This document shows positions 14,371 to 42,339 of a stretch of DNA of 64,000 nucleotides, in pieces (the stretch's first letter is position 1; each line of letters begins with the position of its first letter). Under the pieces are notes generated by a model. The model ran no database searches. It was not told the DNA's origin and saw nothing but the letters and a program-made list of their open reading frames with translations. Where the stretch lies: NCBI GenBank assembly GCA_913054425.1, contig CAJXJG010000001.1, positions 9,339 through 73,338 on the forward strand, read 5' to 3'. The translations under genes were made by a program, and so were the position numbers. The DNA is from an uncultured Fidelibacterota bacterium. GTDB taxonomy: Bacteria; Fidelibacterota; Marinisomatia; Marinisomatales; UBA8229.

Positions 14371-15074
14371 GCTTATCAAGTAGCCTTACAGAAATAAGGA
14401 AAAAAATAATAAGGGCACAGAGACGGGGTGGGTATAACCACCCCGTTTTGATTGTTGCTGTTACAAAAACACATCCGGCAGAGCTTATAGAACTTGCCTA
14501 TGCCAATGGAATAAGATGCATAGGTGAAAACAAGGTGCAGGAAGGGGAAGAGAAGTTCTCTTTGTTGCCCAATCTCCCAGGATTAAAAAAAAGGATGATC
14601 GGGCATCTCCAATCAAACAAGATTAACAAGGCAATCCGGTTGTTTGATTCAATTGATTCAATAAACAGCTTGAGATTGGCAGAGAAACTAAATATTCGTG
14701 CAAATAATTTCGGGAGAACCATTTCTGTTTTGTTGGAAGTAAATACAAGCGGTGAAAAAACAAAGTTTGGGTTTTCCCCTAAAACTATTGATGATATGTT
14801 GGCCGTCTGTGAATTGAACAGAATTGATGTTCAGGGTTTGATGACAGTTGGCCCCCTTACCTCCAATAAAAAAGAAATTAGAAATTCATTTATTTGTTTA
14901 AAAAAAGCCCGGGAGACCTTGAACTCTCAGTTGTCTGGATATATGCTTACAGATTTGTCTATGGGCATGAGCAATGATTACGAACTTGCTGTGGAAGAGG
15001 GTAGCACAATGGTGCGCCTGGGAGCAGCTTTGTTTGGTCCTCGCGGGGAATACTCAAAACAGAGACAAGAATGA
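14367..15074 (+). CDS. yggS: YggS-family pyridoxal-phosphate-binding (PLP homeostasis) protein
   Basis: GTG start overlapping the gyrA stop. 235 aa with VAVTKTHP (PLP lysine), [14 protein letters not shown] and the [12 protein letters not shown] block. Confidence 0.85.
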
Positions 15075-15628
15075 AGCTTTCCTCTTTTCATCATATCTAT
15101 TTATGTACAAACATAGCAAAACACCCACTGAAGGTTAACTCTTCTGTGAGATTTGCCGGGCATTTAATTTTAGATTATGGAAGGAAGAAGTTAATTTGTC
15201 CTGAAAAATTTACTGAAAACAAAATTTCACCTAAGTATTTCAAGAGGCTAAAGGATAAGCTAAATATCAATAATATTTTATTAATAGACAGGCTAGAACC
15301 GTCGGCGAAATTAGCATCAATTGTCGGGCATGTAAACCGATCTGGCTGTTCATTTCTTCGCGGAAGAACGCCCTATAAAAACTTCCCACAATTTTCTGAT
15401 ATGTCACATATTTATTCTCAAGTTAGTATGCTTCCGACAACAGTTGTTCATGCCTTAGGACCGGAAAGATTTATAAAACAACCAAAGGGGGGTGGGCTAG
15501 TCTGGGGCGAAGCCTCTGGTATAATTGCGGTGGTTGCTCATTATGTTGGCATAAGGGTGTTTGCTGTCGGTGCAGAAAGCAGCCAGGTAATAAAAAAGAC
15601 TTTGAAAGAGATAATTGATAGCAAATAA
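15071..15628 (+). CDS. hypothetical protein, divergent/truncated purine-nucleoside-phosphorylase-like (PNP_UDP superfamily)
   Basis: ATGA overlap with yggS. GHVNRSG..FLRG...FPQFSDMSHIY and GEASGIIAVVAHYVGIRVFAVG resemble the central and C-terminal blocks of PunA-type PNPs. The N-terminal phosphate-binding region is missing. Confidence 0.4.
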   Translation: MKLSSFHHIYLCTNIAKHPLKVNSSVRFAGHLILDYGRKKLICPEKFTENKISPKYFKRLKDKLNINNILLIDRLEPSAKLASIVGHVNRSGCSFLRGRTPYKNFPQFSDMSHIYSQVSMLPTTVVHALGPERFIKQPKGGGLVWGEASGIIAVVAHYVGIRVFAVGAESSQVIKKTLKEIIDSK

Positions 15629-15707
15629 ATGAAAACACACCGGAACACAATCTTTATTCTTTTACTATGTTCGTATGAACTTTTTGTTTCCAGTGCAGAA
15701 CATGGGG

Positions 15708-15725
15708 CGATTTTCCGGAAAAACG
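15708..15725. promoter_or_regulatory. near-perfect palindrome CGATTTTCCGGAAAAACG (core TTTTCCGGAAAA) upstream of aceE
   Basis: Read directly. It lies about 170 nt upstream of the aceE start, in a 262-nt non-coding gap. No regulator is assigned. Confidence 0.2.
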
Positions 15726-15890
15726 TGAATATTTCGTTATTGCCAGCCGTAGCATAAACAATTTCAAGGTAGGGCAGGGTTTCGATTAAAAAAGTTTAAA
15801 ATATAATTCTTGCTCTCTTTTTCTTTGTTGTGGAAAATAAGTAGATTTTCTTACGATTAACCGAGTAAAAAGGAAAAAGATAATAGTATT

Positions 15891-18545
15891 TTGATCCGAA
15901 ACAAAAAAGACATTGACCCAGAAGAAACACAAGAGTGGTTGGAGTCAATCAGCGATACTCTGGAGGTCCATGGAGCTGATCGCACTCAATATTTGCTTGA
16001 AAGATTAGTAAATTTTGCGCAGGAGCGTGGCGCCCGCCTTCCTTTTAATATAAACACTCCGTTTATAAATACTATTATGTTAGACAACCAGCCTAAATTT
16101 CCCGGAGACAGAAAAATAGAGCGGCGTATCAAATCACTTGTTCGGTGGAATGCTATGGCTATGGTGGTTCAGGCAAACAAAGAAACCCCGGGAATAGGAG
16201 GACACATTTCTACCTACGCTTCGTCTGCCACATTATATGAGATAGGATTCAATCATTTTTTCAAAGGTCCTGAATATCCCGGAGGTGCTGATTTAGTGTT
16301 TTTCCAGGGTCACGCGTCGCCGGGGATTTATGCCCGAGCCTTCATGGAAGGTCGGCTAACGAAAAACAATTTACATAATTTTCGAAGGGAACTTTCTTTG
16401 GATGGGGGCCTTTCATCTTATCCACACCCGCGTCTAATGTCTGATTTTTGGCAATTTGCTACAGTATCAATGGGCTTGGGAGCTCTTATGGCTATTTACC
16501 AGGCTCGTTTTCTGCATTATTTGATTGATCGTGGGATTATAGAAGATAGCGGTCGAAAGGTATGGGCGTTTTTGGGCGATGGCGAAATGGATGAGCCGGA
16601 ATCAAAAGGCGCTTTAACTTTGGCCGCGCGGGAAGTGCTTGACAACCTGATTTTTGTGATAAACTGTAATTTACAACGGCTGGACGGGCCCGTTCGGGGG
16701 AATAGTAAAATAGTTCAGGAGCTGGAGGGCGCTTTTCGGGGCGCGGGCTGGAACGTGATAAAGGTTATTTGGGGGTCAGATTGGGATCCTCTTTTGGAAC
16801 ACGAATCAAGAAATGCGTTGTTGCGAAGGATTGAAGAAGTTGTTGATGGAGACCTTCTTAAATATGTTGTAGAGGGCGGCAGCTATGTCCGGGAACATTT
16901 CTTTGGGAAAAACCCAGAACTATTGAGAATGGTAAGCCATATTAGTGATGATAAATTAGGCAAAATGCGCCTGGGTGGTCATGATCCAGAAAAAGTGTTT
17001 GCAGCCTATAGCGAAGCTGTGAGTTTTAAGGGGGCTCCAACAGTAATACTAGCAAGAACCATAAAAGGCTACGGAATGGGGGAGGCAGGCGAAGGAAGAA
17101 ACATTACCCATCAACAGAAAAAACTAAATGAAAAGGAGTTGTTAAATTTTCGGGATAGATTTAATGTTCCACTGTCTGATGATCAGGCTATGAAAGCGCC
17201 CTTTTTTAAACCACCCGAAGACAGCGAAGAAATGCAGTATTTAAAAAGATGTCGCCAAAAGCTAGGCGGTTTTCTGCCCTCAAGAAAGGATAATGCACAA
17301 AATTTGGATATACCGGATATTTCAATTTTTCAGGAATTGATGAACGGAACGGGGGAGAGGGAAATTTCCACTACAATGGCCTTTGTAAGGCTCCTAACCT
17401 TATTGACGAAAGATAAAAGAATAGGGAAATATATTGTTCCAATTGTTCCGGACGAAGCACGAACCTTTGGCATGGAGCCTCTTTTTAGAGAACTAGGGAT
17501 ATATGCTCACAAGGGGCAGTTATATGAGCCCGTAGATTCAGAACAGTTTTTATATTATAAGGAAGCAAAAGACGGACAAATACTGGAAGAAGGTATTAGT
17601 GAGGCTGGAGCGATTTCTTCTTTTATTGCTGCGGGGACAAGCTACAGCACAAACGGTATTAATATGGTTCCGTTCTATATTTATTACTCTATGTTTGGGT
17701 TTCAGCGTGTTTGGGACTTTATCTGGGCTGCGGGGGACATGTGTGTGCGTGGGTTTCTCATTGGTGGTACTGCAGGCAGGACCACTCTCAATGGTGAGGG
17801 GCTTCAACATCAGGATGGTCACAGCCACTTGGCAGCGGCAGCAACGCCAAACATTAAAGCATATGATTTGGCATATGCTTATGAAATCGCTATCGTTGTA
17901 GACAGAGGAATGAAAGAAATGTTTCAAGAAGAAAAAAATGTTATTTACTACCTGACCGTTGAAAACGAAAACTATCTTCATCCGCCAATACCAGACGGCG
18001 TGGCAAATGATGTTATTCGTGGTCTTTATAAAATTCATTCCACAGAAAAACCTACTGTTCGAATACTTGGAAGCGGTCCGCTTATGGGTGAAACATTGGC
18101 TGCGGCGAAACTTTTAGAAAAAGACTGGGGAATTGAACCCGGCATATGGAATGTAACCAGCTTTAGTGAACTGAGAAGAGACGCTGAAGAAGTAGAGCGC
18201 TGGAACCTAATAAACCCGGATAAAAAACCAAAGAAGTCTCATCTGGAGAAATGTTTGAGTAAACACAGTGTCCCGACAATTGCTGTGTCTGATTATGTTA
18301 AAATGGTTTCTGAACAAATCGGCCCTTATGTTCCTGGGTCTTATTATGCGCTTGGAACAGATGGGTTTGGTCGTAGCGACACAAGAGAAAACTTGCGGCA
18401 TTATTTTGAGGTTGACCGTTATTATATTGTACTAACAGCCATCCGGGCATTGGCGATTGACGGTAAGCTTGATATGAAAGTAGCTGAAGAGGTGATGAAG
18501 AAATATAATATTGATAAGGATAAACCAAGTCCAATAACGGTATAG
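15891..18545 (+). CDS. aceE: pyruvate dehydrogenase E1 component, homodimeric type
   Basis: TTG start; the in-frame TAA at 15858 limits any N-terminal extension. 884 aa. The N-terminus aligns with the AceE DIDPEETQEWLESI block, and the ThDP motif is GDGEMDEPES...NCNLQRLDGPV. Confidence 0.95.
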   Translation: MIRNKKDIDPEETQEWLESISDTLEVHGADRTQYLLERLVNFAQERGARLPFNINTPFINTIMLDNQPKFPGDRKIERRIKSLVRWNAMAMVVQANKETPGIGGHISTYASSATLYEIGFNHFFKGPEYPGGADLVFFQGHASPGIYARAFMEGRLTKNNLHNFRRELSLDGGLSSYPHPRLMSDFWQFATVSMGLGALMAIYQARFLHYLIDRGIIEDSGRKVWAFLGDGEMDEPESKGALTLAAREVLDNLIFVINCNLQRLDGPVRGNSKIVQELEGAFRGAGWNVIKVIWGSDWDPLLEHESRNALLRRIEEVVDGDLLKYVVEGGSYVREHFFGKNPELLRMVSHISDDKLGKMRLGGHDPEKVFAAYSEAVSFKGAPTVILARTIKGYGMGEAGEGRNITHQQKKLNEKELLNFRDRFNVPLSDDQAMKAPFFKPPEDSEEMQYLKRCRQKLGGFLPSRKDNAQNLDIPDISIFQELMNGTGEREISTTMAFVRLLTLLTKDKRIGKYIVPIVPDEARTFGMEPLFRELGIYAHKGQLYEPVDSEQFLYYKEAKDGQILEEGISEAGAISSFIAAGTSYSTNGINMVPFYIYYSMFGFQRVWDFIWAAGDMCVRGFLIGGTAGRTTLNGEGLQHQDGHSHLAAAATPNIKAYDLAYAYEIAIVVDRGMKEMFQEEKNVIYYLTVENENYLHPPIPDGVANDVIRGLYKIHSTEKPTVRILGSGPLMGETLAAAKLLEKDWGIEPGIWNVTSFSELRRDAEEVERWNLINPDKKPKKSHLEKCLSKHSVPTIAVSDYVKMVSEQIGPYVPGSYYALGTDGFGRSDTRENLRHYFEVDRYYIVLTAIRALAIDGKLDMKVAEEVMKKYNIDKDKPSPITV

Positions 18546-26848: not shown

Positions 26849-27634
26849 ATGGGAGTCCTTGTTGCGGTAATTATTATAGCCATAGGTATTAGATACATTT
26901 TCTTTTGGAAACCTATAAATACAAAGGAAATTTTTGATTCTACACCAATTATAATAGCACATAGGGGAACGCTTACGGATATTCCAGAAAACACATTAGA
27001 GTCATTTAGCACTGCAATTGCCAACGGTTTCAAGGCGATTGAAGTGGATGTGTGCAGCACGCGGGATAAAACCGTTATATGTTCACATAATATTGATCTG
27101 GAAAGAGAAACGGACGGACAGGGATTTATTGATGAGATTAATTATCAGGAAGTAAAGCAGGCAAAAGCGGGTATTTATTCTCATCCAAAGCAGACAAAAG
27201 AAATTCTCACGCTGTATGATTTATTGAAAGAAATCCCTCAGGGTATTTTGGTGAACATTGAAATAAAAACCACCAGCCCCTGGAGTGTTGGCACTGCCTT
27301 GGGGGTGGTCAGGCTGATAAAGGCCAGAAGGATTACTCAAACAGTAATTATATCCAGTTTTAATCCTATTGTTCTTTGGTTAATAAAGTTATTAGCTCCC
27401 AACATTGTTACGGGATATTTATTTAAAACAACACAACACCTTTGGGCGATTCATTTCTTTCATCCTGACTGTCTCCACCCTGAGGCTGGAATTGTAACCC
27501 AGGAACTTGTAAACAGGTCCCATGACCTTGGTCAGCGGGTTAGTGTGTGGACCGTGAACAGTCTCCCCGGTAAGCGCTGGCTGAAAAAATTAAATGTAGA
27601 TGGAATCATCACAAATTATTATTCAGAAAACTAA
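26849..27634 (+). CDS. glycerophosphodiester phosphodiesterase family protein (membrane-anchored)
   Basis: N-terminal TM helix. GDPD motif IIAHRG..DIPENTLESF...AIEVDV...HN. Confidence 0.8.
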   Translation: MGVLVAVIIIAIGIRYIFFWKPINTKEIFDSTPIIIAHRGTLTDIPENTLESFSTAIANGFKAIEVDVCSTRDKTVICSHNIDLERETDGQGFIDEINYQEVKQAKAGIYSHPKQTKEILTLYDLLKEIPQGILVNIEIKTTSPWSVGTALGVVRLIKARRITQTVIISSFNPIVLWLIKLLAPNIVTGYLFKTTQHLWAIHFFHPDCLHPEAGIVTQELVNRSHDLGQRVSVWTVNSLPGKRWLKKLNVDGIITNYYSEN

Positions 27635-29187
27635 TGTCTGAAGCAGCGAACTCCGGTAAAGGTCATAGCAATGTCATATTCATTGCAAGCAGCGATAATT
27701 TCTTGATCTCGAATTGATCCGCCGGGCTGTATAACAGTTGTAATCCCCGAATCTTTTATCGCATCAATGCTGTCACGGAAAGGGAAAAAGGCATCAGAAG
27801 CCAAGACGCCGCCTTTCACATCTTTACCGCCTTTTCGAAGCGCCATATGAACCGCATCTACCCGACTTACCTGCCCACCACCTAAACCAACTGTTGTGTT
27901 GTTTTTTGCAATTAGGATTCCATTGGATTTTGCATGACGCAATACTTTCCATGAAAACAAGGCTGTTTCTAATTCTTGTTCTGTTGGCTTTTTTTGTGTA
28001 ACTGTGTTTAAGTCTTCGAGTGTTAATGTGTTTATATCTGTATCTTGAACCAGAAGGCCCCCATCAATATAACGATATTCTAACTTCGCCTGGCGTTTTC
28101 CGAATTGTCCAATTTCTAAAATACGCAGGTTTTTTTTCTTTTTGAATATTTCCAATGCTTCCGAATCAAAACTAGGAGCCAGAACGATTTCCACAAATCC
28201 CCTTCTGATTTCTTCCGCAACGTCTTTTGTGCACGTGCGATTGAATGCAACAATGCCACCAAAAGCAGAAAGTGAATCGGCATTGAAAGCTCTCATGTAC
28301 ACATCAAGTAAGTTGTTACCCACAGCAACACCGCAAGGGCTGGCATGCTTCACAACCACGCAAGCCGTTTCATCAAATTCTCGTACACAGGCCAACGCGC
28401 CATCAGCATCCATAATATTATTATAGGAGAGCTGTTTTCCTTGGTGGAATTTGGCATTCAGAATGTTGGGTTCAGTATTTCCGGGTATCTTGTAAGCTGC
28501 GGCGAACTGGTGCGGGTTTTCTCCATACCGCATTGCAGAGTGCTTTTCAAATGTGAGTGAAAAATCGTCAGATAAGGTTTCTTCCTTCAAATAATTATGT
28601 ATAATGGTTTCGTATTGGGCCGTGTGACCAAAGGCTTTGGCGGACAGCTTTTTTCGCATATTGAAAGACAGCTCAACAGATGTATCAAGCGCATTTGTGA
28701 TGCGTGAATAATCTGCGGGATCTACCAAGGCGCAAACCCACCCGATGTTTTTGGCCGCCGAGCGAATCATGGTTGTACCGCCAATATCCACATTTTCCAG
28801 CGCCAAAGCTAAATCACAATCTTCTTTTAAAATGGTTTCTGAAAAAGGATAAAGATTGCAAACCACAAGGTCGATCCATTGAATATTATTGGCTTCAGCG
28901 TCATCGCTGTGTTTATCCCGAAGCCCGAGAATACCACCTCCTATCAACGGATTAATTGTCTTTACACGACCGTCCATAATCTCCGGGTATTGGGTATAAT
29001 CACTCACATCTGCAATTGGAACGTCATTATCTCGTAATGTTTTTGCTGTTCCACCAGTAGACAGAATTTCCACCCCAAGATTGGATAAGGCTTGTGCCAG
29101 TTCAACAACATTTGTTTTGTCAAATACAGAAATAAGCGCTCGTTTTATTTTGATCGGGTTTTGATTTAAAGTCGGATTGTTAATCAT
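27631..29187 (-). CDS. purH: bifunctional AICAR transformylase / IMP cyclohydrolase
   Basis: 518 aa. MGS-like N-terminus (RALISVFDKT, GGTAKTL) and C-terminal TGVRCFRH. The stop overlaps the convergent GDPD stop. Confidence 0.97.
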   Translation of the reverse strand: MINNPTLNQNPIKIKRALISVFDKTNVVELAQALSNLGVEILSTGGTAKTLRDNDVPIADVSDYTQYPEIMDGRVKTINPLIGGGILGLRDKHSDDAEANNIQWIDLVVCNLYPFSETILKEDCDLALALENVDIGGTTMIRSAAKNIGWVCALVDPADYSRITNALDTSVELSFNMRKKLSAKAFGHTAQYETIIHNYLKEETLSDDFSLTFEKHSAMRYGENPHQFAAAYKIPGNTEPNILNAKFHQGKQLSYNNIMDADGALACVREFDETACVVVKHASPCGVAVGNNLLDVYMRAFNADSLSAFGGIVAFNRTCTKDVAEEIRRGFVEIVLAPSFDSEALEIFKKKKNLRILEIGQFGKRQAKLEYRYIDGGLLVQDTDINTLTLEDLNTVTQKKPTEQELETALFSWKVLRHAKSNGILIAKNNTTVGLGGGQVSRVDAVHMALRKGGKDVKGGVLASDAFFPFRDSIDAIKDSGITTVIQPGGSIRDQEIIAACNEYDIAMTFTGVRCFRH

Positions 29188-29263: not shown

Positions 29264-29848
29264 TTAAATACGTTCAAACTTTTTAATCGCTTCAATAAAA
29301 GCTTCTCCTTCTAGTTGTTGAACTTTTGTTTTTAACGTATCCACGGTGTCATGGGAATCTATATTACATTTTTTCTGAATTAATATCGGACCACCATCGA
29401 CCTCATTTGTAACAAAATGGATGGTACACCCCGTTTCTGTTTCACCATTTTTTAATACTTCTTTATGAACATTCGTATCCATCCCACCGGCATATTTTGG
29501 AAGTAAAGACGGGTGCACATTCAGAAGTTTGTCGCGCCATTCTCTACAAAACCCTGCGGACAAAATTCGCATGAACCCGACAAGAAAAACCAAACCAACA
29601 TTATGACTCTTTAAAACAGTGGTCATTTCAGAGTCAAATTTTTCACGAGTTTTGCCTTTGTGGGAGATAAAAAATGCCGGTACGGAATGATTTTTCGCCC
29701 GCTCCAATATGTAGGCCTTCTTCCGATTCGAAAGAACCACAGAAACATCAGCATTCAACTCTCCGAGAGCAATAGCATCTAATATGGACTGAAGATCGGT
29801 TCCGTTGGTGGAGCCAAGGACGCCTAATCGTATCGTATTGGTATTCAT
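29264..29848 (-). CDS. purN: phosphoribosylglycinamide formyltransferase
   Basis: 194 aa with GSTNGTDLQSILDA, the NVHPSLLPKYAGG active-site block and VDGGPI. Confidence 0.93.
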   Translation of the reverse strand: MNTNTIRLGVLGSTNGTDLQSILDAIALGELNADVSVVLSNRKKAYILERAKNHSVPAFFISHKGKTREKFDSEMTTVLKSHNVGLVFLVGFMRILSAGFCREWRDKLLNVHPSLLPKYAGGMDTNVHKEVLKNGETETGCTIHFVTNEVDGGPILIQKKCNIDSHDTVDTLKTKVQQLEGEAFIEAIKKFERI

Positions 29849-29909: not shown

Positions 29910-31235
29910 CTAAATACTTTCGCGTTTTAATTTTTTCATATGCTCAATTCGTTTTTGAATCGCCGCGTTAGTCCCAATATCCGTTCTGTGAAACAACGGA
30001 CCAGAAATAGATAAAACCTCTTTTTCTGCAATTGTTTCCGCTTCAGAAATCGTATCTGCAATTCCCACAACGGCGATTGTTCGACTCCCCGCCTCTACTA
30101 GGATTGTTTCTTTAAAATCAACAGATGCATAAAATAACCTATAGTGGTTTTTGATTTTAGATACATCAATTGGTTCGCCTTTTATAGGATTGTCCGGATA
30201 GCCTTCCGGCACAGCATATTTACAAACGGTGGCTTTGGTTGAAAATCGAACATCAACTTTATCTAATGTGCCATCAGTGATACTGGTACAAATTTCAATA
30301 AAATCTGATTCGAGTAAAGATAAAACATTTATGGCTTCCGGATCGCCAAGCCGGGCATTGTATTCAATGAGCTTTACGCCGTTTGCTGTGGACATAAACC
30401 CACCGTAAAGGATTCCTTTGTAGCCTTCGCCGAATTTATCTTTTACCGCTTGGACGGTTTTATTGTTGATTTCCTGTGCTTGAGAAATATCATAATCCGT
30501 TAAAAATGGAAGCGAATGATTGGCGTCAGAATAGGCTCCCATACCGCCGGTATTTGGACCCACATCTTCATCGTAAGCGCGTTTGTGATCTTGCACGATG
30601 GGCATATGTTTCAACACATTACCATCACAAAAACTCATGAGTGAAAATTCTTCTCCGATGAATTTTTCTTCAATAACAAATTTACCGTTATTATTTACTA
30701 ATTCTTGACAATAAGCTAACGCTTCAGAGCGTGAATGCAAATGATCGCCAGACACTTTTACGCCCTTACCGCCGGCAAGACCATTATACTTTACCACATA
30801 ATTGTTTCCCAATCTTTTTAAGAAATCTGCCACACCTTCCATGGAATTGAATGTTTGATATTTGGGTCCGCCGGGAATGTTGTATTCTTTCAGCAAATCC
30901 CGAGCAAACGATTTGGATGTTTCCAGTTGAGCTAAATCTTTTTTTGGGCCAACCACTTTAATGCCAGCGTCCCAAAGCGCATCGGCTACGCCGTTTGCCA
31001 GGGGGTTTTCTGGTCCGATGATTGCCAGCGTTGCACCTACTTTCTTTGTATGGCTCACCACAAAACTAGGGTCGTTGAAATTTCCGATTAAGATTTTATC
31101 ACAGAGCTCAGCAATCCCGGGGTTCATATTGGAAGCCAGACAATAAATCTCTTTTTCTTTGGGGGATCGATACAAAGCGCGGACAATGGCATGTTCCCTG
31201 GCACCGGAACCAATAACTAAAATTTTATTTTTCAT
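29910..31235 (-). CDS. purD: phosphoribosylamine-glycine ligase
   Basis: 441 aa with MKNKILVIGSGAREHAI, an ATP-grasp core and the conserved LIEYNARLGDPE block. Confidence 0.95.
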   Translation of the reverse strand: MKNKILVIGSGAREHAIVRALYRSPKEKEIYCLASNMNPGIAELCDKILIGNFNDPSFVVSHTKKVGATLAIIGPENPLANGVADALWDAGIKVVGPKKDLAQLETSKSFARDLLKEYNIPGGPKYQTFNSMEGVADFLKRLGNNYVVKYNGLAGGKGVKVSGDHLHSRSEALAYCQELVNNNGKFVIEEKFIGEEFSLMSFCDGNVLKHMPIVQDHKRAYDEDVGPNTGGMGAYSDANHSLPFLTDYDISQAQEINNKTVQAVKDKFGEGYKGILYGGFMSTANGVKLIEYNARLGDPEAINVLSLLESDFIEICTSITDGTLDKVDVRFSTKATVCKYAVPEGYPDNPIKGEPIDVSKIKNHYRLFYASVDFKETILVEAGSRTIAVVGIADTISEAETIAEKEVLSISGPLFHRTDIGTNAAIQKRIEHMKKLKRESI

Positions 31236-31486: not shown

Positions 31487-32962
31487 CTAACCACAATTCC
31501 GGTCATTCGTCCGTATTGTTCCCATTTCTACAATTTTAGCTTCATCAATATCATTAGCCACATAGTTTCCATCCAAACATGCCATGCAGGGTGTATCAAT
31601 GTGGTGGTCCCCTTTCCGTGTAACGGCTTCAACTAAATCGTCAATTTTCTGATAAAGGAGCGCATCAACTTTCAGGTGATCCTGGATTTCATCTTCCGTT
31701 ATATTTCCTGCGATGAGCTCACTTTTTGTGGGCATATCAACACCATAAAAACAGGGAAATTTTACAGGTGGACACGCTACCGCAAAATAAACCTCTTTTG
31801 CACCAAAGTCTTTAAGCATCCGGACAATTTCTCGACTCGTATTTCCACGGACAATACTGTCATCCATAATCATCACTTTTTTATCACGGATTTCTGTTTC
31901 TTGGGGCACCAGTTTATATTTTACCGATTTCTTCCGCTCCGCTTGCCCTGTCATAATAAATGTTCGTCCAATAAAAGTGTTTTTATATAATCCTTCCGAA
32001 TATCGCACACCCAACTCATGAGCAAAAGAAAGAGCAGACGTGTTGGCTGTGCTGGGTGCGGGAATCACAATATCTGGAATGATGTCAGGATATTTTTTCT
32101 TCCAGGCATCCGCCAGATTTTGCCCCATTCGCAATCGCGAGCGATATACACTTACGTCGTTCAAGGTGGCATCCGGCCGAGAAAAGTAAACATATTCAAA
32201 AATGCAGGGGTTGAATTTTTTTTTCGCCAGACGCTTGCTAAAGACCCTGCCATCTTCATCCACATAAATAAGTTCACCTGGAAGCACAGTTCCTTTTGGT
32301 TCAAATCCCATAGAATAAAACATGGTGTTTTCCGACGCAAAAATATAATCTTTTCCACCGTTTCCATTGGATCTCTCACCTTTTACAAGGGGACGAATTC
32401 CCTGTGGATCGCGAAAAACAACAAGCCCTTTTCCGATCACAAGGCTCACCACAGAATATGCGCCATTCACCCGTTTAAAAATTTTGGTAACCGCATTACA
32501 CAATAGATAAAAAAATTCTTCACTATCTTCAGGTGGGTTATTGGTGTGCAGCAAATCCGCGAAAAAATGAAGCAACACTTCTGAATCGGACGTGGTGTTT
32601 AAATAGCGGCTATTTTTTTGGGTAATTTCTTCCGCAAGGCTTTGGTAGTTGGTAAGGTTTCCATTATGTGCCAAAGCGATACCGTAAGGAACAGACGTCC
32701 AAAACGGCTGTATTTCGCCATGACTAAAACCGCCGTGGGTGGGATATCGATTATGAGAAATTCCAATATTTCCTGTAAGCAATTCCATGTTGGTATCATT
32801 GAACACTTCTTTCGCAAGGCCCATCCCTTTTTCTTTATGCATGCGATCATCGTAGGTCATAATCCCGGCAGCATCTTGCCCACGATGTTGCAGATGAATG
32901 ATACTGTCGTAAAGTTCTGTTGCTACAGGTTTATGAGAGTAAATACCGGCGATACCACACAT
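31487..32962 (-). CDS. purF: amidophosphoribosyltransferase
   Basis: MCGIAGIY N-terminal nucleophile and a PRTase motif (VMIMDDSIVRGNTS). The C-terminal cysteines (CFYGVD...PCMACLDG) are compatible with the Fe-S type. Confidence 0.96.
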   Translation of the reverse strand: MCGIAGIYSHKPVATELYDSIIHLQHRGQDAAGIMTYDDRMHKEKGMGLAKEVFNDTNMELLTGNIGISHNRYPTHGGFSHGEIQPFWTSVPYGIALAHNGNLTNYQSLAEEITQKNSRYLNTTSDSEVLLHFFADLLHTNNPPEDSEEFFYLLCNAVTKIFKRVNGAYSVVSLVIGKGLVVFRDPQGIRPLVKGERSNGNGGKDYIFASENTMFYSMGFEPKGTVLPGELIYVDEDGRVFSKRLAKKKFNPCIFEYVYFSRPDATLNDVSVYRSRLRMGQNLADAWKKKYPDIIPDIVIPAPSTANTSALSFAHELGVRYSEGLYKNTFIGRTFIMTGQAERKKSVKYKLVPQETEIRDKKVMIMDDSIVRGNTSREIVRMLKDFGAKEVYFAVACPPVKFPCFYGVDMPTKSELIAGNITEDEIQDHLKVDALLYQKIDDLVEAVTRKGDHHIDTPCMACLDGNYVANDIDEAKIVEMGTIRTNDRNCG

Positions 32963-34305
32963 TAGATTAGATCCACCAATTTTGAAGAAAGACCACTATA
33001 GTTTTCGGGCGTTAGACTCAAAAGCGCACGCTTATTTTCATCAGAAATCTTTAATCCAGAGACAAATTCATCCATAGACTCTGCATTAATGGTCTCCCCG
33101 TGAGTTAACTCTTTCAATTGCTCGTAAGCATCTGTTTTCCCCGATTTCCGTAAGATGGTTTGGACTGCTTCCGCCAACACTTCCCAATGATTGTTTAGTT
33201 CTGCAGACATATTCATTTTATTGATAGTGATTCGGCTTAAGCCTTTTAATATATTTTTTAATGCCAAGAAAGAATGTCCCAGGGCCACGCCTTGGTTTCG
33301 CAGAGTTGTGGAGTCGGTGAGATCCCGTTGCATTCGGGAAACAGGTAATTTTACGGCAAGATGATTCAGCAAAGCATTGGCGATCCCCATGTTCCCTTCC
33401 GCATTTTCAAAGTGGATTGGATTAATTTTATGGGGCATTGCTGATGAGCCAACTTCCCCGACCACTTTCTTTTGTCCCAGAATGGCGCGACTAATATAAG
33501 ACCACATATCTCGACACAAATCCGTTAAAATTGAATTTACCCGAACCACCTGATGGAGACTTTCTGCTAGTGAATCGTGGGGTTCAATTTGTGTCGTAAT
33601 TAAGTTGGGCTTGAGCCCCAGTTTATTAATGAATCGTTTAGAGAAGTTTAACCAATTCACTTTTGGATAAGCCACTATCTGGGCAGACCAGGTTCCGGTT
33701 GCGCCGCCAAATTTTCCTAATAACTTGTGAACTTTAATTTGAGAAATTTGTCTATCAAGTCGCGAATAAAACACAGCTAATTCTTTTCCAAATGTTGTGG
33801 GTGTTGCGGGTTGACCATGGGTCAGGGTAAGCATAGATCTGTTTTTATGTTTTCGGGCTAATTTTTTTAATTCTTTATTTAAAGAAAGTAGCATTGGTAG
33901 ATAAACCTGTTTTAGTCCGTCTTGCCACATGAGTGAATAGGACAAATTATTAACATCTTCAGACGTGAGCGCAAAGTGAATCCAGGGATGAAGTGCCTTT
34001 TCCACCTTTCCTTGAATGTAATACTCAATCGCTTTTACATCATGGTTTGTAGTGGCTTCAATTTCTTTTACCTTTTCCCCTCCGGCCGAATTAAAGTTTT
34101 CATAGATTTTACGTAAGTGGGATTGTTCATTTTTGCTAAATGGCAAAAGTTCTTTGATTCCTTTTTCCTTGCCCATTGCTATGAGATATTCAATCTCCAC
34201 TTTCAAGCGGTAGCGCATGAGCGTAGATTCGCTAAAATATTTTGAAAGTTCCGCTATGCTGTTCGCATAACGACCGTCAAGTGGTGAAATTTGGTGAATC
34301 AACAT
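32962..34305 (-). CDS. purB: adenylosuccinate lyase
   Basis: SPLDGRYAN start and fumarate-lyase signature GSSAMPHKINP. 447 aa. The stop shares 1 nt with the purF ATG (TAATG). Confidence 0.95.
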   Translation of the reverse strand: MLIHQISPLDGRYANSIAELSKYFSESTLMRYRLKVEIEYLIAMGKEKGIKELLPFSKNEQSHLRKIYENFNSAGGEKVKEIEATTNHDVKAIEYYIQGKVEKALHPWIHFALTSEDVNNLSYSLMWQDGLKQVYLPMLLSLNKELKKLARKHKNRSMLTLTHGQPATPTTFGKELAVFYSRLDRQISQIKVHKLLGKFGGATGTWSAQIVAYPKVNWLNFSKRFINKLGLKPNLITTQIEPHDSLAESLHQVVRVNSILTDLCRDMWSYISRAILGQKKVVGEVGSSAMPHKINPIHFENAEGNMGIANALLNHLAVKLPVSRMQRDLTDSTTLRNQGVALGHSFLALKNILKGLSRITINKMNMSAELNNHWEVLAEAVQTILRKSGKTDAYEQLKELTHGETINAESMDEFVSGLKISDENKRALLSLTPENYSGLSSKLVDLI

Positions 34306-34763
34306 TTTTCCTTAATTGGCGCTGAGTGGGTTAATGAGAGTTTCCATTTATCATTTTTTTTGCATACAACAGACTCGGACCAATTGCTTTCAGTGTTTTT
34401 GCCGTTATCATCAAATATAGATTTTAGCCTATAGACCACAACCGCTGTTTCAGAATAGACATCAATATTTAAGAATTCAATTTCATTTGTCCGTTTTACA
34501 TCTGTTGGTGTAAACAGATATTTTATCTTGTCTTTTAAATTCCAAATATTTCCATCTTCGATTAAAATATAGTTCTTTGTAACCTTTGCTTTGTGGCCGT
34601 TTATATCAACATTTGATAACGTTTCGTAATCATCTGTTGTCAATTGAGTTATTTTAAGTGAATCAATATTAGTTTGAGAAAAAATATTTACACAGACCAA
34701 CAAACAGAGAACACAAAACACCCTGTGTGTTTTAGACTTTTTAATATTTCTTTCTTTGTGCAC
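34299..34763 (-). CDS. hypothetical secreted protein, NTF2/SnoaL-like (DUF4440-like)
   Basis: GTG start and a signal peptide (VFCVLCLLVCVNIFSQ). The C-terminal pattern TAVVVYRL ... NDKWKLSLTHSAP is typical of NTF2-like folds. It overlaps purB by 7 nt. Confidence 0.5.
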   Translation of the reverse strand: MHKERNIKKSKTHRVFCVLCLLVCVNIFSQTNIDSLKITQLTTDDYETLSNVDINGHKAKVTKNYILIEDGNIWNLKDKIKYLFTPTDVKRTNEIEFLNIDVYSETAVVVYRLKSIFDDNGKNTESNWSESVVCKKNDKWKLSLTHSAPIKEKC

Positions 34764-34778
34764 TCTGTGGCCCTGATT

Positions 34779-35165
34779 CTAAACCCCAAAGATTCTTTTT
34801 ATGGCCAACGCACAATTCTCCGGATCTAAAATAGTAAGCACGGGTGTATTGCTTGGCATTTGTAAGGTGGAATGAATATTCACCAACATATCTGTTTTAT
34901 CAGAAAAGGGCGGACAGCCAATAGTTGGGAATTCACAGTTAGCAGCTACAAACCCGGATAAAGCATTGGAACGGCCGGCGATGGTGATATAAACAATATC
35001 CTTCTCATTTTCATTGGCCGTCAAAATATCTAAAACCTTCAAGGGTTGTTTGTGGGCCGATGCTGCATGCTGTTCCCAGGCAATGCCGTATTCATCTAAT
35101 TTGTCCGTTATTTTTTTTGCGTGGGGTTCGTCAGATGTAGAACCCATTATTACAATTGTCTTCAT
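34779..35165 (-). CDS. purE: PurE, class II-type (AIR carboxylase) by motif
   Basis: MKTIVIMGSTSD start; the ORF opens at 35195, but the Met at 35165 fits the family. It has AGRSNALSG and PTIGCPP, where class I enzymes have AGGAAHLPG and PVLGVPV. Confidence 0.8.
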   Translation of the reverse strand: MKTIVIMGSTSDEPHAKKITDKLDEYGIAWEQHAASAHKQPLKVLDILTANENEKDIVYITIAGRSNALSGFVAANCEFPTIGCPPFSDKTDMLVNIHSTLQMPSNTPVLTILDPENCALAIKRIFGV

Positions 35166-35174
35166 AATTAATAA

Positions 35175-35228
35175 CCACAGGACCAAAGAGCGCACAGTGA
35201 TAATCTCGGCGCTTTTGTGTCTTCGTGG
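35175..35228 (-). repeat. purC-purE spacer: degenerate member of the CCACAGAG inverted-repeat family
   Basis: Arms CCACAGGACCAAAGAG (35175-35190) and CTTTTGTGTCTTCGTGG (35212-35228). The right arm ends 1 nt from the purC stop codon and the left arm lies 9 nt from the purE ATG. Confidence 0.5.
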
Positions 35229-35229
35229 T

Positions 35230-36216
35230 TTACAGAACTCCTTTTAAGTTTTCATTAATTCGGTCATTCATAGCCTTCCCAGAATCAGGGAATGGAAACA
35301 CACCGCCCGTAATGGTTTCGTATAAATAGATGTAGCGACTCGACAGTTCGGTGACTAATTCTTCCGGTGCTTTCGGCAATGTTTCATCGTTGTAGGGATC
35401 GCAATTATCTATAAACCACAGTCGTAAAAATTCTTTATCAATGTTTTGTGGTTCTTGTCCGGCTGCCATGCGTTCATCGTACGTTTTGGCTATCCAATAT
35501 CGGCTGGAATCAGGCGTGTGGATTTCATCAATAAGCATAATATTTCCACCCACATCCCTGCCCATTTCATATTTAGTGTCCACCAAAATCATGCCGTTTT
35601 CCGCAGCTTTCTTTTGTCCGAAGGTAAAAAGCGCCAACGCCTTTTTACTGCAATAATCCCAGTCTTCTTGTTTCATCCAGCCTTCGCTGACAATTTCATC
35701 TGGAGCGATGGGACGATCGTGATGCTCTTCTTTGGTGGTAGGTGTAAGCATATTGGCATCCAACTTCTGATTTTTAATCAACCCTTCAGGTAAATCATTT
35801 CCGCAATATTCTCTGTCGCCGTTATTATAAACCGTCCAAAGGGATGTGCTCGTGCTGCCTGTAATGTGTCCGCGAACCACAAATTCAATGGGGAAAACAT
35901 CACACTTTTTCGCGAGTGTTACATTGGGATCGGGTATGGAAATTATATGATTAGGAACAATATGTTTCGTTTGCTCAAACCACCACGCGCTGGTGAGATT
36001 TAACACCTGACCCTTAAATGGAATGGAAGCAAGTACGCGATCGAAAGCGCTTTGGCGATCTGTGGTAATAAGAGCCACTTTATCGCCAAAATCATACTGG
36101 TCTCTGACCTTCCCCGTGCGCTTGGATCCGCCGGGAAAAGCCGTTTCGGTTAAGGTGTTATTCAGTTCTGCCTTGATTCGGATTTTATAATGTTTAGTTG
36201 ATTCGATAGCATTCAT
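35230..36216 (-). CDS. purC: SAICAR synthetase (long form)
   Basis: GKVRDQYDF ... ITTDRQSAFDRVL ... IPFKGQVLN blocks. The ORF opens at 36273, but the Met at 36216 (MNAIEST) fits family length better. It overlaps the purQ/S 3' end. Confidence 0.88.
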   Translation of the reverse strand: MNAIESTKHYKIRIKAELNNTLTETAFPGGSKRTGKVRDQYDFGDKVALITTDRQSAFDRVLASIPFKGQVLNLTSAWWFEQTKHIVPNHIISIPDPNVTLAKKCDVFPIEFVVRGHITGSTSTSLWTVYNNGDREYCGNDLPEGLIKNQKLDANMLTPTTKEEHHDRPIAPDEIVSEGWMKQEDWDYCSKKALALFTFGQKKAAENGMILVDTKYEMGRDVGGNIMLIDEIHTPDSSRYWIAKTYDERMAAGQEPQNIDKEFLRLWFIDNCDPYNDETLPKAPEELVTELSSRYIYLYETITGGVFPFPDSGKAMNDRINENLKGVL

Positions 36217-37459
36217 GAGAAAGTGGATTGAATAATATGTGTGAGTACAAAATTTGTTTAAAAACAGTTTCAAAATTACCGCTACTAACGGTTATTGTCC
36301 ATAAAATACCCCGTTTTAATTTAGTTATTCCGACAATTTCAAATCGCTCTGTCAGGGCTTCGAGTTTCGCCCGTCCGATTATATCTTCTTTTTGTTGAAC
36401 TAATAGAGAGGCGGTGTTTTCCTCTGATACGATTTTGCCGATGAATTCTTTATTAGAATTATAGAGTTCGCCCGTTTTATCAATTTTTTGTAGGATGGAT
36501 TCTGGCTCGCCGTTCGTAGATATTTCCCAATGGGTTTGCCGAGAAATTGATACATCAAAACCTAAATGATCCAGCGCATTATGAACAGATGACGCTTCAT
36601 TATCCGTAATTATCATATCAATAATCCATTCGGTTGAATAAACGCTGGATTTATAATTTTTAACTTCATAATGGGGACGGTTAAAAGATAATGTGTGGTT
36701 GGTAACAGGGTTTCCGTTTTCGATAAAATCTTTTATGGAGGAAAAAATAGCATCCCCATTTTCCGTCCGCTCGGGGTGGGGCATCATGGCCATAACATTC
36801 CCTTGAGCATTACACGCTGCCGCTAAATTGTGCACGGATCCGTTGGGATTGGTAGGGAACTCGTCAACAATATTTCCTTCATCATCACAATAACGAAAAA
36901 CTGTTTGATTGTTAGAAATCATTTTTTCCAGCAATTCATTGGGGATAATAAATCGACCTTCACCGTGAGCCAAGGGAATATTGATAAAGTCACCAGATTT
37001 CAAATGGCGCGTAAATGCACAGCGGTGAGAAGGCGCAGACATTTGCAAATTTGCCCAGGTATTATAATAACCAACGCCAAGCACATGACCGGATTTAACT
37101 CGTTTGTTATCGGTGAGCGCAATCCCAATGCGGTGATTTTCCAACCCCGGGACGAGTCCGCTTTCTACTAAAATTTGCGCCCCATTGCAAATACCGAGAA
37201 CCGGTTTTCCTTTTTTGGCTTCAACCTTGATTTGTTTCATAATGGGATCCAATGCGGCAATCACGCCGGCCCGGGAACGGTCTTCGTATGCGAACCCACC
37301 TACAATAATATATCCATCAAAACCCGGCAATTTTTTTGGTGGCTCATTCCACAAAAATTCTACAGGATTTAACCCCACACGATGGCAGGCCATAATTGTT
37401 TCCCGCTCTGTGTTGGAACCGGGAAATTGAATGATTGCTATTTTTGCCACAAAGCTCAC
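36194..37459 (-). CDS. purQ: FGAM synthase glutaminase PurQ fused to two C-terminal PurS-like repeats
   Basis: The N-terminal ~265 aa are PurQ (IAIIQFPGSN, LGICNGAQILVESG, MMPHPER). The C-terminal ~155 aa contain two PurS-like units (NALDHLGFDV...GELYNSNKE and LEALTERFEI...ILFNPLSHECYRI). The start is the GTG at 37459 or the GTG at 37450. Confidence 0.85.
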   Translation of the reverse strand: MSFVAKIAIIQFPGSNTERETIMACHRVGLNPVEFLWNEPPKKLPGFDGYIIVGGFAYEDRSRAGVIAALDPIMKQIKVEAKKGKPVLGICNGAQILVESGLVPGLENHRIGIALTDNKRVKSGHVLGVGYYNTWANLQMSAPSHRCAFTRHLKSGDFINIPLAHGEGRFIIPNELLEKMISNNQTVFRYCDDEGNIVDEFPTNPNGSVHNLAAACNAQGNVMAMMPHPERTENGDAIFSSIKDFIENGNPVTNHTLSFNRPHYEVKNYKSSVYSTEWIIDMIITDNEASSVHNALDHLGFDVSISRQTHWEISTNGEPESILQKIDKTGELYNSNKEFIGKIVSEENTASLLVQQKEDIIGRAKLEALTERFEIVGITKLKRGILWTITVSSGNFETVFKQILYSHILFNPLSHECYRIN

Positions 37460-37510: not shown

Positions 37511-38554
37511 TTATGAAACCAAAACATGTTTTTCTCCACTTACAACAAAACCAATCTTATATACTTCTGTTAAATCTTTTAATGCATCTTTTACCGAAGC
37601 CACATCAGCAGAACCCACAATAAAAACCATACCGACTCCCATATTGAATGCGCGGAACATTTCATTTTTATCTACATCACCGATGGATTGTATTACATCA
37701 AAGACAGGAAGAGAAGGCCAGGATTCTGTTTGGATTTCAACACCACAGCTGTCCGGCAAAACTCTAGGAATATTTTCCACCAAGCCACCACCGGTGATAT
37801 GAGCGATGCCTTTTACATCAATCCCATTGTCCAAAACAGAAAAAACATGATTCGTATAATTAATGTGTGATTCCAATAAAGTAAGTCCAACTGATTTGTC
37901 CAATTCTGGAATGGAATCGTTCACGTCATATCCACCAATTTCGAAAAAGAGTTTTCGGGCGAAAGAGTAGCCGTTGGTATGAAGCCCGCTTGATGGAAGT
38001 CCCAATACAGCATCGCCAGGCTTGATATTCTCGCCCGTAATAATTTTTTCTTTTTCTACCACGCCGGTAATGATACCAACTAAATCGTATTCACCGGGAA
38101 GATAAGTGTCAGGCATTTCTGCTGTTTCTCCTCCCACCAAAGAGACGCCTGTTTCCTTGCATGCTTTCACCATCCCGGACACAATTTCTTCTACAACTTC
38201 TGGTTTTAGTTTATCGTTGGCAATATAATCCAAAAAGGTGAGTGGCCGTGCACCCATGACCAAAATATCGTTGGCGGCAGCGCTCAAAAGATCAATGCCA
38301 ATCGTATCAAATTTTCCCATTTTCCGGGCGATAATGGTTTTGGTCCCAACACCGTCAACACTCTGAACCATCACGGGGTGATCATAGTTTTCTAAAATGG
38401 GTTTAAGATCATAGAGCGACCCAAAACTCCCGATCCCCGTAAGCACATTGGATGTAAAAGTGGATTTCACGCCATCTTTGATGCGTTCCACCGCTTCATT
38501 CCCAGCCTCAATATCTACCCCGGCTGATTTGTAATCTATTTTATTTTTAGTCAT
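37511..38554 (-). CDS. purM: phosphoribosylformylglycinamidine cyclo-ligase (AIR synthetase)
   Basis: 347 aa with YKSAGVDIEAGN, DGVGTK and the typical PurM N- and C-domain blocks. Confidence 0.96.
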   Translation of the reverse strand: MTKNKIDYKSAGVDIEAGNEAVERIKDGVKSTFTSNVLTGIGSFGSLYDLKPILENYDHPVMVQSVDGVGTKTIIARKMGKFDTIGIDLLSAAANDILVMGARPLTFLDYIANDKLKPEVVEEIVSGMVKACKETGVSLVGGETAEMPDTYLPGEYDLVGIITGVVEKEKIITGENIKPGDAVLGLPSSGLHTNGYSFARKLFFEIGGYDVNDSIPELDKSVGLTLLESHINYTNHVFSVLDNGIDVKGIAHITGGGLVENIPRVLPDSCGVEIQTESWPSLPVFDVIQSIGDVDKNEMFRAFNMGVGMVFIVGSADVASVKDALKDLTEVYKIGFVVSGEKHVLVS

Positions 38555-38603: not shown

Positions 38604-40937
38604 TTATAGCTTCTCACGTAACCCATTCGTCCACGCTTCTTTTGTTTCATTTACAGATATATTTATGACATTATTAATTTGAATTAAATCACCGCCTGTT
38701 TTTCCAATCTCAAAAACATCCAATTTATATTTTGAAAAGTTTTCTTTAATTGTTTCAACATTTTCAGAAGAAGATTCTAATACAAACCCCCCCGTTTCAG
38801 AAAATAACAATTTTTCCACTGAAAGATTACCAACAATTGTTACACCACACCCAACTCCCCTTTTGAATGTCATTTCCGCAAGAGCTGAAGCAATACCACC
38901 ATCGGAAATATCATGGCATGACAGCACCAAACTATCATCAATACAATCGGTTAAGGCAAAAATTTGAATTTTCACTTCTTCCAAAGCCGGCTTCGGAACA
39001 TTGGCGCCCATTTCACCATGAAGACTGTAATAAACGGATCCACCCAATTCGTTTTTCCGTTTGCCAATCATTATCAAAATAGAATCGGTTTTTTGGAAAT
39101 GCATAGGCACCACTTTATTTACATTTTTGAATCGACCCAAACAACTCACAATCGGACTTGGGGGAATTGCGCCACTTTTTGATTCATTATAAAAACTCAC
39201 ATTTCCTGCAATAATGGGGGTGGCATCATTTGGATTGTCTTTTAACGTAATGGTATGACACGCATCAGCTACACCGCGGACGCTTTCAGTAAACTCCCAC
39301 ATTTGATAGGGCTTTTCAGGATTCCCGAAACAGAGACAATCCGACAAAGCATGGGGCGTTGCCCCAACGGCGGCCACGTTCCGCATGGACTCCACCACAG
39401 CATTAATGCCGCCCCAATACGGATCAATAAGTCCGTACCTTGGATTGTGATCGGTGGAAAGAGCAACACCCACATTTCGAATTTCTTCCGGGTATTTTTC
39501 AGAATTAAAGGGCGCCATTACGCCGGAATCTGCCAAGCCGGTTTCCATATAAATCCGACCTTGGACCTGTTTATCATATTGTTCAAAAATGGGCTCGCGG
39601 CTCGCCATGTTTTCGTGGGATAAAATATTTAACAAAGTCTGGTTATAATCTGTCGGTTCAGGTAGAGCTGGTTCTACAAAATTTGATTCCCACGCTTCAA
39701 AAGGTCGATCGTATAAAAACCCTTCTGTTACTTCTTTTGCTTTCGCATTGACAATTTCTTCGTCGCCATTATGTACAATATATTGACCGTCATTTCTGAT
39801 TTTTCCAATGACAGACGCTCTGGCGCCTGTGCTCACACCGGGAAGGTCAAAGACATTATTATAATGGTCTAAAATCATGGGCGTTACTTCAGGTGAACAA
39901 ACCCACATAAATCGCTCTTGGGTTTCGCTGCAAAGATAAACGGACGGATGCAATCCTTCCATGCTGATATGAATTTTCTCCATCCACACTTCTGCACCGT
40001 AACCGGATGTTTCTGCTAATTCCACACTGGCGCAAGCCACGCCACCGGCACCCAAATCCTTAAAGCCGATTTTATTGATCAATCCTTTTTCTTTTAAGAT
40101 TTCAAAGAGAGCGTAGGATGACTTAAGTAAGTGCCGCCCCAAAAATGCGTTGGGCTCTTGAACGGCCCCTTTGTTTTGTTTCTTCTTTTTTTCTTCGAGC
40201 TCTAATGAAGCAAAGCTGGCGCCGCCGAACCCACTATTGTCGGTAGGTTTGCCCAGTAAAATTAAATCATATCCGTTTGCGTTTTTTGGTGCATAGGAAT
40301 GAATAATATCATTTTCCCGAACAATGCCAAGCGTCACCAGGGTCACTAAACAGTTTTCGTTATAGCCGTTGTGATAATATAAATCACCACCGACGTTTGG
40401 AATGCCCAGGGGATTTCCATAGCCGGCAACACCGGTCACCACGCCATCGTGAATCCATTTTGTTTTATTGTTTTTAATTTCACCAAAGCGGAATGAGTCG
40501 GTGACCGCAATGACCTCCGCACCCATACATAAAACATCCCGGACGTTGCCACCCACGCCAGTGGCGGCGCCTTCATAAGGTACAATTTGTGATGGATGAT
40601 TATGGGATTCATGGCTCATAACAATACACCAGCGATGCCCATCATTGTCTGTAGCAATTGCAACCACGCCCGCATCTTCTTTAGCGCCGAGAATCACATC
40701 AGGACCTTCGGTGGTAAATTGTTTTAAATGATTACGACTGCTTTTATAAGAGCAGTGTTCCGAACCTTGAATAGAAAACAGAATAAGTTCCGTCAAGGAA
40801 GGAGCCCGCCCCAGCATATCATTCTGAATTTTGCGTGCTTCATTAGTGGTGAGCGGAATATTTAATTCAGAAAGTTTGGCTTTAATGGCAGAATCGGACA
40901 GCCCATCAAAGTCTATTATTTCTAGGGTAAACGCCAT
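38604..40937 (-). CDS. purL: phosphoribosylformylglycinamidine synthase subunit PurL (small type)
   Basis: 777 aa with SHESHNHPSQIVPYEGAATGVGG and duplicated PurM-like domains. Confidence 0.96.
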   Translation of the reverse strand: MAFTLEIIDFDGLSDSAIKAKLSELNIPLTTNEARKIQNDMLGRAPSLTELILFSIQGSEHCSYKSSRNHLKQFTTEGPDVILGAKEDAGVVAIATDNDGHRWCIVMSHESHNHPSQIVPYEGAATGVGGNVRDVLCMGAEVIAVTDSFRFGEIKNNKTKWIHDGVVTGVAGYGNPLGIPNVGGDLYYHNGYNENCLVTLVTLGIVRENDIIHSYAPKNANGYDLILLGKPTDNSGFGGASFASLELEEKKKKQNKGAVQEPNAFLGRHLLKSSYALFEILKEKGLINKIGFKDLGAGGVACASVELAETSGYGAEVWMEKIHISMEGLHPSVYLCSETQERFMWVCSPEVTPMILDHYNNVFDLPGVSTGARASVIGKIRNDGQYIVHNGDEEIVNAKAKEVTEGFLYDRPFEAWESNFVEPALPEPTDYNQTLLNILSHENMASREPIFEQYDKQVQGRIYMETGLADSGVMAPFNSEKYPEEIRNVGVALSTDHNPRYGLIDPYWGGINAVVESMRNVAAVGATPHALSDCLCFGNPEKPYQMWEFTESVRGVADACHTITLKDNPNDATPIIAGNVSFYNESKSGAIPPSPIVSCLGRFKNVNKVVPMHFQKTDSILIMIGKRKNELGGSVYYSLHGEMGANVPKPALEEVKIQIFALTDCIDDSLVLSCHDISDGGIASALAEMTFKRGVGCGVTIVGNLSVEKLLFSETGGFVLESSSENVETIKENFSKYKLDVFEIGKTGGDLIQINNVINISVNETKEAWTNGLREKL

Positions 40938-41010: not shown

Positions 41011-42339
<1,329 letters not shown>

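Follow-up and report, generated by a model that had tools for sequence, protein, structure and literature searches.

A stretch of 64,000 nucleotides from an uncultured marine Fidelibacterota bacterium (Marinimicrobia/SAR406; contig CAJXJG010000001.1), here called the window, carries a purine biosynthesis cluster on its minus strand, and within that cluster lies one gene which joins purQ to two purS-like units. The gene is complete and occupies positions 36194..37459 on the minus strand, as judged from the list of open reading frames (ORFs), its full-length homologues and an AlphaFold2 model. It begins with a GTG start, has 421 codons plus a stop and no internal stops, and encodes a protein of 421 amino acids (aa). 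An earlier sequence-only reading had described a single 421-aa polypeptide at these positions, and the uninterrupted minus-strand ORF bears this out. Formylglycinamide ribonucleotide (FGAR) amidotransferase performs step 4 of purine synthesis. Very probably the protein combines in one chain the PurQ glutaminase of this enzyme with a C-terminal tandem pair of PurS-like units, which would form an intramolecular pseudo-dimer corresponding to the PurS dimer, or to the N-terminal domain of large PurL.

The PurQ glutaminase domain covers aa 6-245 (36725..37444, minus strand), as supported by the GATase_5 and TIGR01737 models and by the Thermotoga maritima PurQ structure 3d54_D, in both sequence and fold. 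Pfam GATase_5 spans aa 6-233 (E 1.5e-43, 149.3 bits against a cut-off of 27 bits), and the NCBIfam model TIGR01737, which describes PurQ as formylglycinamidine ribonucleotide (FGAM) synthase I, reaches 215.3 bits against its cut-off of 177.8 bits. The NCBIfam models of large PurL give only about 90 bits on the same protein, with cut-offs of 783-1123. The fold of T. maritima PurQ matches with a template modelling (TM) score of 0.89 on the target and a root-mean-square deviation of 2.6 A. The catalytic residues are Cys91 in a GICNG motif (37187-37189, minus strand) and His228 and Glu230 in an HPE motif (36776-36778 and 36770-36772, minus strand). Among 59 homologues Glu230 is invariant, and Cys91 and His228 are nearly so. 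The N-terminal 245 residues are thus a bona fide PurQ glutaminase, and because the domain is intact and its triad conserved, the glutaminase should be active. The sequence-only reading had assigned the first 265 or so residues to PurQ. Its identity stands, and the boundary lies earlier: the 213-aa 3d54_D aligns by sequence with aa 7-245, which puts the end of PurQ near aa 245-250.

Between the glutaminase and the first PurS-like unit is a linker, aa 246-274 (36638..36724, minus strand), delimited with AlphaFold2 and by comparison of homologues. As predicted by AlphaFold2 it has no regular secondary structure apart from a short bridge at aa 267-268, and its block has a predicted local distance difference test (pLDDT) score of 84-89, below that of its flanks. 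The linker varies in both length and sequence among homologues.

The roughly 170 residues after PurQ hold two repeated units (the C-terminal part, about aa 273-421). Unit 1, aa 275-344 (36428..36637, minus strand), carries the motifs ITDNEA and GELYNSNKE and is delimited by a weak match to the Pfam PurS family PF02700, by hhalign and by AlphaFold2. Unit 2, aa 347-421 (36197..36421, minus strand), carries the motifs KEDxxG and HILFNPLSHECY and is delimited by a profile match to 2zw2, the PurS of S. tokodaii, and by hhalign. For hhalign, the solved-PurS reference was a small alignment of five sequences that came out of the PDB search. Unit 1 aligns with it in register at 82 % probability (E 1e-5) and unit 2, also in register, at 84 % (E 8e-6), and the two units align with each other at 96 % (E 1e-8). 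In all three alignments the DPxG position of PurS falls opposite TDNEA/EDxxG, and the LLANPVIE tail falls opposite ELYNSNKE/ILFNPLSHE. The claim that the last 155 or so residues are two tandem PurS-like units was upheld by these alignments. The PurS-type tails described along with it are real as well, since hhalign places ELYNSNK and ILFNPLSHEC in register with the B. subtilis PurS tail, LLANTVIEDY.

The same signal is found at the level of the family. An alignment of 45 C-terminal modules, 26-53 % identical to the query, was scanned against Pfam, and PF02700 was the sole family matched by more than one of them (16/45 at E <= 1, best 1.2e-6). Relatives of the C-terminal 171 residues were also drawn from 1.84 billion representative proteins. 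At E <= 0.001 there were 188 clusters, and most of the full-length members are 400-460 aa long and match at their C-terminal end; none of the module matches listed at this threshold is a free-standing full-length PurS. The top PDB profile match of the module is 2zw2; the match lies within unit 2 and takes in the NP of the tail. Judging from these comparisons, both units are homologous to PurS and appear to have diverged, in this protein, beyond the Pfam PurS model.

AlphaFold2 predicts the module confidently as a double ferredoxin-like fold (pLDDT 97.0, predicted TM score (pTM) 0.90), with the order beta-alpha-beta-beta-alpha-beta occurring twice. In the full-length model the elements of unit 1 (E, strand; H, helix) are E275-282, H287-298, E303-315, H319-329 and E338-341, and those of unit 2 are E349-356, H360-372, E378-391, H396-406 and E415-420. 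Foldseek was used to compare the module with the PDB, and the 18 best matches are all large PurL, with a probability of 1.00 over 150-155 columns and a TM score of 0.62-0.68 on the query. They include Salmonella FGAR amidotransferase (E 2e-5 to 2e-4) and human PFAS, and sequence identity in these structural alignments is 6-12 %. The stand-alone PurS structures 2yx5, 1vq3 and 2cuw rank next, over 73-78 columns and with a TM score of 0.53-0.63 on the target.

The gene context agrees with a PurS function for the module. The predicted partner of the fusion protein is a PurL of the small type, 777 aa, identified with Pfam and encoded at 38604..40937 (minus strand). It lies two genes upstream of the fusion gene, with purM (37511..38554, minus strand; AIRS + AIRS_C) in between. 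This PurL has an FGAR-AT linker at aa 18-65 followed by two AIRS/AIRS_C pairs, and the segment upstream of aa 18 is too short for an N-terminal PurS-like domain, which marks it, on its domain content, as a small-type PurL. Because PurL begins at the linker and has no such domain, the PurS-like pair follows the glutaminase rather than preceding the synthetase. The domain order does differ from that of large PurL, as the sequence-only reading had stated. Small PurL requires PurS (PMC3261824).

No separate purS was found beside this PurL. The small ORFs outside the window's long genes, 15 in number, include nothing PurS-like, and a six-frame scan of the window with the PurS hidden Markov model (HMM) and with HMMs of each unit gave nothing besides the fusion gene, so the claim of a cluster without a separate purS stands. 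Related loci were collected by scanning GTDB, with one genome per species and an 8-sequence alignment as query. The scan gave 242 loci with the fusion, and results per locus refer to the best 80 of these 242. No canonical PurS was detected in those 80 with the PurS HMM; that model was built from five solved sequences and misses the fusion module itself, so its negatives cover canonical PurS and not very divergent copies. Nor was there a PF02700 gene among the called neighbours of a Spirochaetaceae and a Gammaproteobacteria example.

Several points weigh against reading the module as PurS. A single-sequence Pfam search finds no PurS match on the full protein, and unit 1 alone reaches only E 0.093 and 13.4 bits against PF02700, below the gathering threshold of 22.2 bits. 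The profile match to 2zw2, although it ranks first, is weak (E 0.76) and level with that of an unrelated Xre antitoxin (E 0.78). The approximately 152 matched columns of large PurL are taken to be its PurS-dimer-like N-terminal domain because the match length and the published description fit and because unit 2 is collinear with Salmonella PurL, rather than from target coordinates. The way the module docks on PurL and its equivalence to the PurS-dimer position are likewise presumed. Finally, the search for purS covered the 64-kb window, flanks of up to 6-10 kb in the 80 Marinisomatota loci and the two examples from other phyla. Unit 2 alone has no Pfam match, and NCBIfam scans of the protein and of the units gave no usable PurS call. 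A finding that profile searches see no PurS similarity in the C-terminal region therefore very nearly holds when this protein alone is scanned against Pfam (13.4 vs 22.2 bits), but the family-level matches (16/45), hhalign and the predicted structure overturn it.

A different origin with the same function was considered, in which the module came from a large-PurL N-terminal domain that was split off and rearranged, rather than from a duplicated purS fused to purQ. The best structural matches, which are large PurL across the whole module, speak for it. In addition, unit 2 aligns weakly and collinearly with residues 72-119 of Salmonella PurL, in the second half of the N-terminal domain, with E 1.3e-3, which is slightly better than the alignment of solved PurS sequences with that domain (E 0.063). 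However, this N-domain comparison is itself weak, with a two-sequence template and a probability of 7-18 %, and the recurrent Pfam match of the module is PurS. The glutaminase scores as PurQ (215 bits) and not as the glutaminase domain of large PurL (92 bits vs 1123), and the two units are closer to each other (96 %, E 1e-8) than to PurS, which fits an internal duplication. Altogether this makes an origin from large PurL improbable.

The module could also be a ferredoxin-like or ACT-like ligand-binding regulatory domain of the glutaminase, while a gene in another part of the genome supplies PurS. The beta-alpha-beta-beta-alpha-beta fold of PurS does resemble that of ACT domains, acetohydroxyacid synthase regulatory subunits are among the weak Foldseek matches, and the scans for purS were confined to single loci. 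But these ACT-type regulatory subunits have a Foldseek probability of 0.06-0.11 only and a TM score of about 0.16-0.20, versus 1.00 and 0.62-0.68 for large PurL, and the sequence signal is specific to PurS, down to the tail motif of the family. The gene is also always found beside a small purL without the N-domain, with no purS nearby in three phyla. A regulatory role of this kind seems very unlikely.

The conservation of the joined reading frame was assessed both in protein databases and in the related loci. The best 120 database relatives are 414-421 aa long, cover 97-100 % of the query and are 78-100 % identical to it, and they come from five sources (ENA, JGI, NCBI, Logan and Tara). In GTDB the module was detected in 76 of the best 80 loci. 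PurQ and the module share one stop-free frame in all 72 of the uncut loci, which are from different species, and the remaining four of the 76 end at a contig edge. AlphaFold2 models the full-length chain with pLDDT 95.1 and pTM 0.93, which suggests that the module is packed on PurQ in a fixed and confidently predicted way; with Foldseek no PDB chain was found that spans both PurQ and the module, the best TM score on the query being about 0.5. It is hardly credible that a frameshift, a sequencing error or a chimeric assembly produced the long ORF artificially by joining purQ to one or two separate purS genes: annotation does miss the fusion, in that the precomputed Pfam lists of the homologues hold glutaminase families only, but the frame shared by 72/72 uncut loci, the at least 120 proteins of near-constant length from independent sources, the retention of the fusion down to about 30 % identity and across phyla, and the modelling of the whole chain refute this, so the joined frame claimed by the sequence-only reading survives the test for a frameshift or assembly error.

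With PurQ and a tandem PurS-like pair in one chain favored over these alternatives, a mechanism can be proposed. The fusion protein and the small PurL, whose gene lies two genes upstream, would form a 1:1 heterodimer. In it the PurS-like module would bridge glutaminase and synthetase, standing in for the PurS dimer or for the N-domain of large PurL, and the ammonia freed at Cys91 would be handed to the PurL active site. If the module does replace the PurS dimer or the N-domain, the holoenzyme would be a two-chain version of the four-chain complex, with two chains rather than four, and the organism would not need a separate purS. Placed end to end, PurL and the fusion protein would read linker-synthetase-glutaminase-PurS2, which is the order of large PurL circularly permuted. 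The statement that the fusion hard-wires a 1:2 ratio of PurQ to PurS was borne out in that the two units stand in tandem on one PurQ chain.

The distribution of the fusion was examined in the same GTDB scan and in the protein clusters. The best 80 loci are almost all labelled Marinimicrobia, Neomarinimicrobiota or Fidelibacterota, and the commonest arrangement in them is purA-purL-purM-purQSS-purC-purE-purB-purF-purD-purN, where purQSS is the fusion gene. More divergent members, whose taxa are taken from cluster names, are named Spirochaetaceae (TVR69549.1), Sphaerochaetaceae (MFA7539964.1) and Thiotrichales (PCI36416.1), and further ones are named Gammaproteobacteria metagenome-assembled genomes and Candidatus Bipolaricaulia (MFQ5796380.1). 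Marinisomatota carry the PurQ-SS fusion as a rule, and other phyla carry it sporadically. An order of small purL, purM, purQSS and purC is common to Marinisomatota, a Spirochaetaceae contig (L081, 6493-12335) and a Gammaproteobacteria contig (L083, 6644-12052), which hints that the four genes travel together from one phylum to another.

In some lineages PurC is fused in frame too, giving PurQ-SS-PurC proteins of 683 aa (P0188) and 726 aa (P0249). Such a fusion is easy to understand, because in the window the ATG of purC (36214-36216) comes before the fusion gene has ended: the two genes overlap by 23 nt (36194-36216, minus strand), in different frames. This overlap also suggests translational coupling of the two genes. 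Two metagenomic proteins, P0220 (647 aa) and P0282 (686 aa), consist of PurQ-SS and a C-terminal tail of about 250 residues with a weak DUF4328 match (E about 2e-3). The tail looks membrane-like, and it could be a real extension or a read-through in gene calling. The Spirochaetaceae contig L081 encodes, in the same cluster (14306-16300), a PurD-PurN fusion of 664 aa (GARS_N/A/C + Formyl_trans_N).

A broader proposal can be offered only tentatively, since we judge it somewhat more likely to fail than to hold. Here the fusion would be an evolutionary path of its own to an FGAR amidotransferase with covalently wired parts, and with a small PurL it would make up a circularly permuted large PurL. 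The coupling module would be permanent, and assembly may be free of PurS recruitment, or even constitutive. The purL-purM-purQSS-purC block would have spread as a unit, in Marinisomatota, Spirochaetota, Gammaproteobacteria and Bipolaricaulia, and would have been fused to PurC in some lineages.

The remaining genes of the cluster lie on both sides of purL, purM and the fusion gene, all on the minus strand. Upstream is purA (41011-42306), assigned from its sequence only. Downstream, in order of transcription, are purC (35230..36216; SAICAR_synt, E 5.5e-66), purE (34779-35195), a 154-aa ORF between purE and purB (34299-34763), purB (32962-34305), purF (31487-32962), purD (29910-31235), purN (29264-29848) and purH (27631-29187). 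The named genes are therefore transcribed in the window in the order purA-L-M-QSS-C-E-B-F-D-N-H. The other de novo steps were found in the cluster, where purK was not seen. PurE is short: its ORF is 138 aa, and from a likely start at MKTIVIMG the protein would be about 128 aa and cover positions 3-128 of the 148-position AIRC profile. The 154-aa ORF overlaps the start of purB by 7 nt and has a hydrophobic N-terminus. It has no Pfam match, and because a homologue was found in just 1 of the best 80 related loci, the pur cluster appears to have gained it by a lineage-specific insertion. The cumulative GC skew turns at about 27.6 kb, and the strand of the genes changes there from plus to minus. 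Rfam was run on the whole window (1-64000) and found no family at its gathering score, and therefore no purine riboswitch ahead of the pur cluster.

Where the fusion proteins are named by their source, they are called PurQ, FGAM synthase I or FGAM synthase only, and their precomputed Pfam lists do not include PurS. Full-text literature searches for a PurQ-PurS fusion found no paper describing it. The term PurQSL, in a paper on Akkermansia, was considered as a possible fusion and rejected, as it simply names the complex.

SAR406/Marinisomatota is a major lineage of the dark ocean. Since the sources call these proteins PurQ or FGAM synthase only and list no PurS, pathway reconstructions for this lineage probably report the PurS subunit as missing, and the fusion explains the gap. 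A natural chain with exactly two PurS units per glutaminase is also independent support for the 1:1:2 stoichiometry and for the PurS dimer as the functional unit, and, with only two proteins, the fusion and its PurL make a simpler system in which to study the coupling of glutaminase to synthetase by the PurS module. The fusion arranges the domains of a well-known enzyme in a new way: it is real, conserved and so far unannotated, while its function and fold are not new. It should be of moderate interest to enzymologists and useful for the annotation of Marinisomatota metabolism.

Compared with known systems, the fusion is closest in its parts to the three-component PurL/PurQ/PurS enzyme of B. 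subtilis and T. maritima (3D54). Both have a small PurL with a linker and two AIRS/AIRS_C pairs and a PurQ with the catalytic triad, and both have two PurS-fold units per glutaminase, which matches the PurL:PurQ:PurS stoichiometry of 1:1:2 given in a passage of PMC10912719 that cites Hoskins 2004 and Anand 2004. They differ in that here the PurS units are joined covalently to each other and to the PurQ C-terminus, so that the number of gene products falls from three to two and the number of chains from four to two. Unlike the stand-alone PurS, the module is not a separate dimerising small protein, but the count of two copies is kept.

Large PurL (Salmonella 1T3T, human PFAS 9NB3) shares with the fusion a covalent pseudo-dimer of PurS-like subdomains. 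Its N-terminal domain is described, in a passage of PMC10912719, as touching both synthetase and glutaminase and is thought to couple the two. In large PurL the PurS-like pair is N-terminal, before the linker and synthetase, and everything is in one chain, whereas here the pair comes after the glutaminase and the synthetase is separate. A parallel in kind is found in some methanogens, whose mdPurL (PMC3261824) also carries a fused, divergent PurS-like segment. A separate purS is usually absent there too, and the case rests, as it does here, on low sequence similarity and the absence of a gene. In mdPurL, however, the segment is an extension of roughly 200 aa on the PurL N-terminus, and here it is on the PurQ C-terminus. 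After large PurL and mdPurL, the fusion is a third way to tether the PurS module, in a permuted order.

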